Source of the DNA: Rickettsiales bacterium UBA1997
Lineage (GTDB): Bacteria > Pseudomonadota > Alphaproteobacteria > Rickettsiales > UBA1997
NCBI GenBank assembly: GCA_964202895.1
Contig: CAXNJM010000001.1
Location: 176,673-240,672 of the forward strand
Length of the DNA: 64,000 nucleotides
Direction of reading: 5' to 3'
Shown: one piece after another, positions 4,662-6,629 of the stretch
How positions within the stretch are numbered: the stretch's first letter is position 1
Layout of the letters: each line of letters opens with the position of its first letter
Notes under the pieces: generated by a model
Database searches by the model: none
Seen by the model: only the letters and a program-made list of their open reading frames with translations
What the model was told of the DNA's origin: nothing
Program-made: the position numbers and the translations under genes

Positions 4662-6629
4662 CTATTTTTTATTTAATGATTGCCAAATAAACTCAGAAGT
4701 GAAAGGTAGCATTGGTGCTACTGCTTCACAAATATTAATTAATACTGTATAAAGAACATTATAAGCATTTTGTTTGTCATTATCTATATTTCCTTCTTTT
4801 ATCGACCTCCAAAAGCGATGACGATTTCTTCTTATGTACCAATTATTTAATATTTCAAAAAATCCAATAAATTGATGAGATGCCTCGATTGTATTATATT
4901 TAGCAAGATTTTCATCGATTGTTTTTATCGCAACTTTCATTTTTGCTAAAATATATTTATCAAGAGGGTTTTCAAGATTGAGGCTGTTATATAAGCGATT
5001 TGCTTTTATTTTGTCTGCATTGGCATAAAGACAAAAGAAATTAAAGCTATTGATAAGTGGTTTTATTGCTAAGCGAAACATTTCTTTGACTACTTTGCCA
5101 TCTTTATCAATTCTTAATTCTTGACCCTGCATCACTGGTTGAGATATCAAATAAAATCTCATAGCATCGCTACCAATAGTTGAAAAAATTTCAAGAGGAT
5201 CTGTATAATTTCTTAATCTTTTTGATAATTTTTGCGATTTTTCATCAAGAATTGTTCCGTGACAAATTACATTTTTGAAAGGTGCTTTATCAAATAGAGC
5301 TGTAGACAAAACCATTAAGGTGTAGAACCAACCGCGGGTTTGAGCTAAATATTCAGTGATAAAATCTGCTGGAAAGTTTTTTTCAAATTTTTCTTTATTT
5401 TCAAATGGGTAATGCATTTGTGCAAAAGGCATAGAGCCACTTTCAAACCAGCAATCAAGGACATCGGTAACTCTTATCATTTTTGAACAATCTTGATGTT
5501 CAGGGTGATTAATGTCAGAACGAGGATCGCTTGGATTCAAACGGGAAAGATTGTCGATATAAGGGCGATGAAGATTGTCAATTTTTATACCAAAATCATT
5601 CTCTATTTCTGTGAGACTTCCGTAGACATCGAGTCTTGGATATTTTTTATCAGTGCTTTTCCATACTGGAACTGGACAACCCCAGAAGCGATTTCTAGTA
5701 ATAGACCAATCTCTTGCATTTTCAAGCCATTTACCAAATTGACCTTCTTGCAAATGATTGGGAATCCAGTTTATTCCAGATTCTAATTGAGATAACCAAT
5801 CGGTTTTACTTAGTTCGTAATAACAAGAAGTATATTTTTTATTTAAACTTGCTTTTGGGTAGCCGTTATCTTCTGTTTTGATTAATTTAAAACCGCATTT
5901 ATCAAGCACTTTTTGTGAAGCGATGTTATCAATTACGGTGCAGGCACATATTTCAGTTATTGGCAAATGTTCAAAACAATATCTTGTAAGACTTTTAGTG
6001 ATTTCAGTGGCATAGCCTTTATTCCATGCTGATTTTACAAGTTGATAAGATATCTCTACCTTTCCTTCTTGAAAATTTTCATAACGAGGATGATAAAAAC
6101 AAATTCCTGCTGTGCCAATAAATTCTAGGGTTTTTTTATCTAAAAGAATAAATCTTGGTAAGTTATGTTGTTTAAAATATTCTTGCCAATAAAGTATGTT
6201 TGCAATAGAAGATTCTCTGCTCATGATTGGCTCATCGGAGAAATAGTAGTATTTTCTAACTTCTGGATCGCTATACATTGATGCCAATTCTTCTAAATAT
6301 TCAATTGACATTGGCTTTGCAATTAATCTTTTTGTTTCAAGAGAAACTATCTTTTTTATTGATGTATTATTTTTGTTTGAATCTTCAAAATCAGTCTTAA
6401 GAAAGGTTTTTCCATTATTTAGTTCGACCATTCTTTCTTTGATATTGCTAACTTTAACATACCAAGAGCTAACCGCTTTATAAATTAATGGTGTATCCGT
6501 TCTCCAACAATGAGGATAATTATGAAGATATTGTTCGGTTTTTAGCCAAGAGCCATTAGATTTAAGATACTTTATGATGTCGTCATTTGTTTCAAAAACT
6601 TGACGATTATTCAATGAAATTATTGCCAT
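4662..6629 (-). CDS. Chimeric protein: internal fragment of an isoleucyl-tRNA synthetase (second half of catalytic core, KMSKS loop, start of anticodon-binding domain) with an inserted RimJ/RimL-type GNAT acetyltransferase domain
   Basis: IleRS motifs: '[13 protein letters not shown]', 'INWIP...[19 protein letters not shown]', '[11 protein letters not shown]', 'QTRGWFYT', 'KLSKRLRNY'. There is no HIGH region or editing domain. Residues ~72-285 carry the GNAT pattern ('[32 protein letters not shown]', 'AWNKGYATE', '[13 protein letters not shown]'). Confidence 0.8.
   Translation of the reverse strand: [655 protein letters not shown]

Follow-up and report, generated by a model that had tools for sequence, protein, structure and literature searches.

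A partial isoleucyl-tRNA synthetase with an in-frame acetyltransferase domain in a Rickettsiales genome: a probable beta subunit of a naturally split enzyme

What is the product of a gene that holds only part of an isoleucyl-tRNA synthetase (IleRS) and, in frame within it, an acetyltransferase domain of the GNAT type? The question is raised by an open reading frame (ORF) of 655 residues, located at 4662..6629 (-) of a 64,000-nucleotide stretch of contig CAXNJM010000001.1 of Rickettsiales bacterium UBA1997; this whole stretch is referred to below as the window. Along the protein follow the end of the CP1 insertion, the GNAT domain, the KMSKS half of the catalytic core and the first anticodon-binding helices. 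An initial annotation, made from the DNA letters alone, took the IleRS parts for a self-sufficient scaffold around the GNAT. Here, we consider it quite probable that the ORF instead encodes the beta subunit in a type-2 IleRS that is naturally split, with the GNAT as an accessory domain. The alpha subunit, of ~446-449 aa and encoded by a separate gene elsewhere in the genome, would contribute the HIGH-bearing half of the Rossmann fold together with most of the editing domain in CP1; beta would add what remains of CP1, the Rossmann half with KMSKS and the first helices of the anticodon-binding region. The two would associate non-covalently into an active IleRS in which both CP1 and the Rossmann sheet are complete, while a gamma subunit with the DUF5915 tRNA-binding domains would probably be a third free-standing protein, or else has been lost. 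From comparisons of genes and domains we infer that the chains assemble, that they are active and that this very genome encodes alpha, as well as whatever role the GNAT may have.

The gene model itself raises little doubt. The ORF opens with an ATG and has an in-frame TAA three codons upstream; the ORF list agrees with the initial annotation in this, as well as in placing ubiB next to it. Pfam tRNA-synt_1 (PF00133) matched residues 277-502 (E 9e-64) at profile positions 202-410 of 414, and Anticodon_1 (PF08264) matched residues 557-654 at profile positions 1-95 of 148 only. These borders, together with a KMSKS loop in the form KLSKR, bear out the domain order that had been read from the translation, and 'KLSKRL' is invariant in 14/14 aligned sequences. 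The start had been placed just after CP1. This is the correct border region, but in the alignment residues 1-72 are colinear with residues ~410-480 of unsplit relatives, and the ORF start falls inside the last part of CP1, not cleanly past it. The NCBIfam equivalog model for ileS, TIGR00392, gave the ORF 396.7 bits, under the cutoff of 621.4 bits, a shortfall to be expected of a partial enzyme. The HIGH half and the editing domain are indeed missing in the ORF; six N-terminal halves used as tblastn queries detected no HIGH motif or editing-domain sequence in the 64-kb window.

The missing half exists as a gene of its own. Five C-terminal pieces (the window protein, P0002, P0003, P0004 and P0007; 62-91% identity) share the start residue, 'M..(L/I)SLKNRQVF'. 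With the first 408 aa of the closest unsplit relative as query, free-standing N-terminal pieces of 422-467 aa were recovered (P0121-P0124, P0126, P0128, P0129), all of which terminate at '...CPVDEAGKFT.EIFD(L/I)E', one position ahead of the start of the C-terminal pieces. They retain the HIGH-region motif 'PHYGHLLTG' and the editing motifs 'WTTTPWTLPSN' and 'GTGIVH.AP.FGEDD'. Four of them form a clade of their own with 60-87% identity, which parallels the four closest C-terminal pieces (70-91%), and across this range of identities both the motifs and the length of alpha are kept. The alpha gene adjoins pgsA in both sub-lineages, and this pgsA-alpha neighbourhood is conserved. The claim of a self-sufficient IleRS scaffold is not supported, as the absent half is a separate conserved gene that ends where the ORF starts.

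Species-representative genomes were scanned with a fused alpha-beta query, and both pieces were found in one genome. The metagenome-assembled genome (MAG) 'Rickettsiales bacterium isolate 49632_E25' contains a C-terminal piece (L006, 91%, query residues 450-1102) that is syntenic with the window, and, on a different contig, an N-terminal piece (L008, 93% to P0126, query residues 1-449). At the level of the sample the same holds for P0003 and P0129, a C-terminal and an N-terminal piece from the assembly ERZ27280300, which lie internal to contigs of 122 and 60 kb among unrelated neighbours. The pieces abut at one residue and jointly cover the enzyme up to the end of its clade, as is expected of a split synthetase. 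Against TIGR00392, the N-terminal piece P0126 scored 388.5 bits, so that alpha and beta reach a rough sum of ~785 bits, above the cutoff; unsplit relatives with the GNAT clear the same cutoff with 788-852 bits. Judged from these alignments, the apparent N-terminal truncation is a conserved gene fission. A split intein or trans-splicing was rejected because the termini of the pieces bear no extra sequence. In a neighbour-joining (NJ) tree of the shared IleRS body, which is indicative only, the window protein, P0002, P0003 and P0004 form a single clade; therefore one fission is assigned to this clade, and P0007 and the L003 type described below represent separate events. An ORF of fused nucleotidyltransferase and HepT-like parts (MNT-HEPN type, L008:5347-6078) lies 6 nt past the alpha stop in MAG 49632_E25, and may be the remnant of a gene-splitting insertion.

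The beta gene is maintained across its relatives. The 90% cluster of the window protein has 18 members from independent ENA, JGI and Logan assemblies, 14/16 of the members listed being full-length (655-657 aa), and the syntenic locus was found again in L002/L006 (91% orthologue) and L007 (97%). These independent assemblies and the recurring locus rule out a mis-assembly, one of the outcomes that would have undone the initial annotation. Nei-Gojobori ratios of nonsynonymous to synonymous substitution (dN/dS) between the window and the 91% and 97% orthologues were 0.10 and 0.07 overall, with dS up to 0.77. By part, they were 0.07-0.15 for the GNAT core, 0.10-0.19 for the GNAT insert (residues 73-285) and 0.02-0.08 for the IleRS parts. 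The gene, GNAT included, is therefore under purifying selection and not decaying, as had been argued initially from the uninterrupted frame. What a truly decaying ileS looks like can be seen at L088:918-4196 (ERZ26869886 SGH_MAG_79_3), where a canonical ileS has fallen apart into four ORFs in a row (182, 429, 89 and 231 aa), adjoined by ankyrin-repeat and transposase genes.

At its other end the ORF lacks the C-terminal part of a canonical IleRS. That it ends early had been noted, but the loss is clade-wide and includes unsplit enzymes. The whole clade stops at '...PFT.E..W..L' plus a few residues, an end common to unsplit enzymes without the GNAT (830-860 aa; P0032, P0040, P0071) and unsplit enzymes with it (1000-1100 aa). 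Canonical Rickettsiales IleRS2 (L010 Candidatus Megaera venefica, L011, L012; 1062-1069 aa) runs ~260-280 aa beyond this end, through the Pfam DUF5915 region (ARD2/ARD3, tRNA recognition). From such comparisons the C-terminal truncation is a feature of the clade and not specific to the window ORF. The tail was absent from the window and nine flanks both in tblastn and in six-frame translations searched with a hidden Markov model (HMM) built from 108 DUF5915 sequences, the sole match of which was the last ~35 aa of the ORF itself.

A candidate for the missing tail is a stand-alone protein. An exhaustive HMMER search with a profile of stand-alone candidates yielded many complete proteins of 255-275 aa that start with 'M(1-10 aa)S[VI]HL...', where 'S[VI]HL' is the very next canonical residue past the clade end. 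This type makes up ~35-40 of the top 150 representatives (50% identity), and one of its clusters has eight members, all of 262 aa. Demonstrably free-standing genes of ~270 aa are L092:1317-2141 and L093:2219-3043, located between purM and prfA/lipB on contigs with 36-38% GC; they are the only free-standing copies in the metagenome scan. Two further candidates were discarded: P0286 belongs to a decayed, fragmented ileS beside transposases, and P0297 is the tail of a continuous ileS with an in-frame DUF559 module and not a separate gene. Since there are dozens of free-standing DUF5915 families, a separately encoded gamma subunit seems likely for the clade in general. To our knowledge, free-standing DUF5915 genes have never been described as a synthetase subunit. 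The C-terminal domains of IleRS2 are reported to be evolutionarily plastic in a 2026 preprint (10.64898/2026.02.03.703510).

Intermediate states among relatives indicate how such fissions could arise. In L003:6001-9367 (FLOH01001352.1), the alpha piece is followed by a 372-aa ORF with a Glyco_transf_61 match and then by the beta piece, with 8-nt overlaps at both junctions; it is the same hom-ileS locus as that of the unsplit gene in L085 and L090. The arrangement with a GT61-like ORF between ileS pieces is listed also for L005:1253-2765. In L003 the beta ORF comes to a stop at 166 aa ('...NPNDPTGK*') and another ORF begins 3 nt on, reflecting either a second break or a sequencing error. Other relatives carry a DUF559/Vsr-like endonuclease module in frame at fission site 1, the position of residue 1 of the window ORF, namely P0033 (residues ~440-580) and L089:1-2587 (JANRKF010000014.1), a high-GC alphaproteobacterial locus. 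In L089 a DUF559 module also stands in frame exactly at the junction of site 2, where the window ORF ends, between '...LEEIYRGLT' and 'TSVHLAEFP'. A third location in type-2 ileS is found in P0161 (residues 293-397), which makes three surface sites in all. The modules are flanked by repeat-derived peptides ('PSPLRGEGWGEG...' and '...PHPSPRPEGEGV', e.g. 'PSPSGRGLGEG' and 'PNPLPEGEGF'), and the N-terminal pieces P0131 and P0172 terminate in the same peptides.

The DUF559 module has the look of selfish DNA that either tolerates permissive loops in an essential gene or targets them. The recurrent insertions at fission site 1 mean that a permissive surface loop of CP1 has been hit repeatedly, and both borders of the window ORF coincide with in-frame DUF559 sites of relatives. 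The borders would both be permissive surface sites, and the fissions were probably caused by selfish DUF559 modules or other ORFs that inserted there. The window itself retains neither a DUF559 module nor a repeat-derived peptide, and it is the border positions alone that match the hot-spots.

The GNAT domain is the second peculiarity of the ORF. The insert comprises 213 residues between '...ERMVELN' and 'INWIP', where relatives without the GNAT have one residue. Its in-frame position between 'ERMVELNN' and 'GINWIP' and its Acetyltransf_3 type had been recognized correctly, PF13302 scoring 92.4 bits (cutoff 25.4) over the full profile (1-138 of 138) in agreement with the alignment. The best PDB sequence-profile matches are PA3944, B. 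anthracis 3fbu, YdaF and RimJ, and Foldseek gave template modelling (TM) scores of 0.88 for 3fbu, 0.85 for PA3944, 0.83 for YdaF and 0.80 for RimL. The identity to any characterised member is only 15-22%. A specific affinity to MccE or RimL was rejected, as PA3944, 3fbu, YdaF and RimJ rank first, MccE is absent and RimL stands at Foldseek rank 29. Membership in the TacT/AtaT/ItaT toxins was rejected likewise: neither these nor MccE occur among the 24 PDB profile matches of the GNAT, no antitoxin-like small gene lies beside the ORF (its neighbours are ubiB and piuC), and the PADLOC defence models gave no match.

AlphaFold2 (AF2) models the GNAT as an autonomous domain with a predicted local distance difference test (pLDDT) score of ~85-92, in the window ORF as well as in the unsplit P0012. 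It would sit at the tip of a helical hairpin after CP1, and we infer that the helices flanking the insertion form a CP2-type hairpin. Across 20 inserts, the acetyl-CoA loop 'W(G/N)KGYATE' and the motif 'N..S..L.K.GF' are conserved, with invariant G/N/S/K columns that include G134. From the purifying selection and the intact cofactor motifs, the GNAT is probably an active accessory acetyltransferase. The same insert is present in ~27 unsplit relatives, and enzymes with and without it are intermixed in the NJ tree; it is therefore an accessory module that is not needed for synthetase function. Related GNATs are found at fission site 1 (P0154, P0158, P0181) and, colinear with the NCBIfam model NF040702, in the CP1 variable region (P0211). 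P0154, encoded on an 877-kb contig, has an apparent frameshift near its end. The fixation of GNATs at three IleRS2 sites could reflect functional coupling. Insertion at permissive loops fits the recurrence equally well, because two of the three GNAT sites, fission site 1 and the CP1 variable region, also accommodate DUF559 modules. That the GNAT acts in cis on IleRS ligands within a three-piece IleRS of alpha, beta and gamma is in our view unlikely.

Several observations weigh against a split IleRS in this organism. Alpha was seen in a MAG related at 91% and not in the exact genome of the window, and P0126 is located on a 128,000-bp NCBI record and not on the 1,225,155-bp contig of the window protein. 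The clusters of 20 gamma candidates included none on the contig of the window ORF. In AF2 models of single chains, made with a shallow alignment of 14 sequences, the catalytic core of the window ORF did not reach pLDDT 50, and that of the unsplit P0012 did not either; since the unsplit control scored equally low, this is attributed to the shallow alignment. IleRS2 without anticodon recognition is strongly impaired in complementation (preprint 10.64898/2026.02.03.703510), and activity without the DUF5915 domains is therefore uncertain. Finally, the genome of the window may contain a second intact ileS.

One alternative is that the alpha-beta complex is a paralogue, engaged for instance in resistance, editing or regulation, while a separate canonical ileS does the housekeeping charging. 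The clade does without the anticodon-recognition domains of DUF5915, many bacteria carry two IleRS types (preprint 10.64898/2026.02.03.703510) and the portion of the genome inspected is the 64-kb window, all of which would suit such a division of labour. It is nevertheless improbable, as the genome is streamlined and its source contig measures 1.225 Mb, the scan of MAG 49632_E25 gave split pieces only (with query patterns that are clade-specific), unsplit members of the clade pass the ileS equivalog model and the catalytic and editing motifs are strictly conserved.

Another alternative, close to the initial annotation, is that the 655-aa protein by itself is a new acetyltransferase, whose IleRS remnant holds analogues of Ile-AMP or Ile-tRNA in the service of immunity or translation control. 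The GNAT is intact, folds autonomously in the model and is under purifying selection, Acetyltransf_3 relatives include RimL, and the three sites of GNAT fixation in IleRS2 hint at a functional coupling with the synthetase. However, the complementary N-terminal piece is a conserved protein whose end coincides exactly with the split point and which occurs in the same MAG as a C-terminal piece, and ~27 unsplit enzymes with bona fide ileS scores have this GNAT insert too. Half a Rossmann fold of a class I synthetase cannot form an adenylate pocket alone. In addition, the GNAT has no specific similarity to MccE, TacT, AtaT or ItaT and the linkage to the TonB-receptor/PiuC pair is not conserved, which together make this alternative very improbable. 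A decaying pseudogene fragment or an assembly chimera, for which the fragmented ileS next to transposases at L088 offers a precedent, is effectively refuted by the low dN/dS at dS up to 0.77, by 655 uninterrupted codons in DNA of 30% GC, by a start and an end that stay the same even among lineages with as little as 62% identity and by independent recovery of the ORF in many assemblies.

The coordinates of the ORF, its parts and its neighbours are collected in Table 1.

Table 1. Parts of the proposed beta-subunit gene and neighbouring genes in the window
Feature	Position (nt)	Strand	Basis or remark
Whole ORF, proposed beta (middle) subunit of a split type-2 IleRS	4662..6629	-	ORF list, Pfam, NCBIfam, orthologues, dN/dS
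Residues 1-72, last CP1 elements and helix 'IKERMVELN'	6414..6629	-	Residue 1 = fission site 1
Residues 73-285, in-frame GNAT insert: linker, Acetyltransf_3 domain, C-terminal helix	5775..6413	-	Alignment, AF2, dN/dS
Residues 101-248, Pfam Acetyltransf_3 core with acetyl-CoA loop 'WNKGYATE'	5886..6329	-	PF13302, E 5.4e-26
Residues 286-502, second half of class I Rossmann catalytic core ('INWIP...')	5124..5774	-	PF00133; long invariant column runs
Residues 467-471, KMSKS signature as KLSKR	5217..5231	-	Read from sequence
Residues 557-654, first helical part of anticodon-binding region; end = fission/truncation site 2	4668..4961	-	PF08264
ubiB, upstream on the same strand (context)	6659..7990	-	TIGR01982
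Fiu-type TonB-dependent receptor (context)	1774-3951	+	NCBIfam
PiuC/YbiX-type dioxygenase, convergent with the ORF (context)	3953-4660	+	NCBIfam

The ORF is closely packed, with 29 nt to the ubiB stop upstream and 1 nt to the stop of the convergent PiuC-type gene. ubiB scored 460.8 bits, with a TIGR01982 cutoff of 487.55, and matched from profile position 56, so that its N-terminus is short relative to the model. Its synteny with the ORF is kept in L002 and not in L001. A scan for promoters and terminators found no enrichment over shuffles in this AT-rich DNA and no terminator between ubiB and the ORF; the two genes are probably co-transcribed, ubiB not being part of the enzyme. The initial annotation had also proposed a functional tie to the TonB-receptor/PiuC pair. 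This neighbourhood occurs only in the closest relatives and is gone in the 70%-identical orthologue, which lies among wholly different genes, and the linkage is therefore given no functional weight. The window encodes biosynthetic genes, e.g. leuA and aminotransferases, and the 1.2-Mb genome of ~30% GC looks streamlined rather than degraded. Four ORFs on the minus strand of the window have no Pfam match: 51125-53920 (931 aa), 50473-51108 (211 aa), 55353-56111 (252 aa) and 7998-8396 (132 aa). The 931-aa and 132-aa ORFs have no NCBIfam match either, and the 132-aa ORF is syntenic upstream of ubiB in L002. Related MAGs are titled 'Rickettsiales bacterium', and several freshwater ones (CAMDGT01, CAMAYG01, CAMDSB01) 'Rickettsia typhi', almost certainly a mislabel because of gene content and habitat. 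JGI 3300008119 is one of the freshwater samples in which the lineage occurs.

Few aminoacyl-tRNA synthetases are naturally split, and those that are show the modular build-up of large multidomain enzymes. If IleRS is cut lineage-wide in a CP1 loop and its pieces are encoded at unlinked loci, this would be a natural counterpart of the fragment complementation of Schimmel, and the likely second cut before the C-terminal tRNA-binding domains would test the plasticity that has been claimed for the IleRS C-terminus. The sites involved suggest a mechanism as well, the insertion of selfish DUF559 modules or other ORFs at the points of fission. GNATs at three positions of IleRS2 provide a testable lead on a link between acetylation and aminoacylation, through inhibitor immunity or control of charged tRNA. 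If the GNAT does act on IleRS ligands, it would N-acetylate inhibitors that mimic isoleucyl-adenylate, as a built-in immunity, or (mis)charged tRNA(Ile), for quality or translation control, and its three positions would reflect repeated selection for coupling and not neutral insertion into permissive loops. For annotation the consequences are practical: annotators will tag the pieces as 'partial' or 'GNAT family N-acetyltransferase', and genomes may be scored as lacking ileS.

Two known kinds of enzyme are involved, split synthetases and GNAT-bearing IleRS, and no description of a natural split IleRS or of a GNAT insert of the window type in IleRS was found in the literature searched. The GNAT shares the fold, the acetyl-CoA loop and the C-terminal 'N..S..L.K.GF' motif with GNATs of the RimJ/RimL/YdaF/PA3944 type; these are free enzymes, whereas the window GNAT is internal to a synthetase subunit. 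An IleRS with an in-frame GNAT of the Acetyltransf_3 type is already curated as NF040702 (ileS_w_GNAT, 'isoleucine--tRNA ligase, N-acetyltransferase domain-containing'), which qualifies the initial statement that the architecture had not been described; the statement stands insofar as NF040702 covers another lineage and another GNAT site. Membership in NF040702 was rejected, since with a cutoff of 1999 bits the window ORF reaches 152 and unsplit relatives with the GNAT reach 293-327. The site differs as well: the NF040702 model has its additional ~150 positions between profile positions ~271 and 493, within the variable region of CP1, whereas the GNAT of the window follows CP1. The NF040702 enzyme is also a single polypeptide of ~1100 aa that includes the C-terminal region. 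The DUF559 modules (L089, P0033, P0161), in permissive surface loops with the frame kept, resemble the Rickettsia palindromic elements, which are in-frame selfish insertions in conserved genes. Among split synthetases, the AlaRS of Nanoarchaeum is naturally split and the LeuRS of Aquifex aeolicus is an alpha-beta heterodimer. Aquifex LeuRS is the closer parallel, as a class Ia synthetase encoded by two distant genes whose products are jointly whole and have to assemble to form the catalytic core. It differs in that its cut lies in the leucine-specific region before KMSKS, whereas the IleRS of the window is cut in a surface loop of CP1, probably has a second cut before the C-terminal tRNA-binding domains and carries the extra GNAT, its assembly being a prediction. 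In 1992, Shiba and Schimmel reportedly cut E. coli IleRS within CP1 and saw it reassemble into a working enzyme in vivo. Their construct likewise consists of two chains of IleRS parted within CP1; it was a type-1 enzyme cut in the laboratory, whereas the window presents what is probably a natural, lineage-fixed cut of a type-2 enzyme with unlinked genes.

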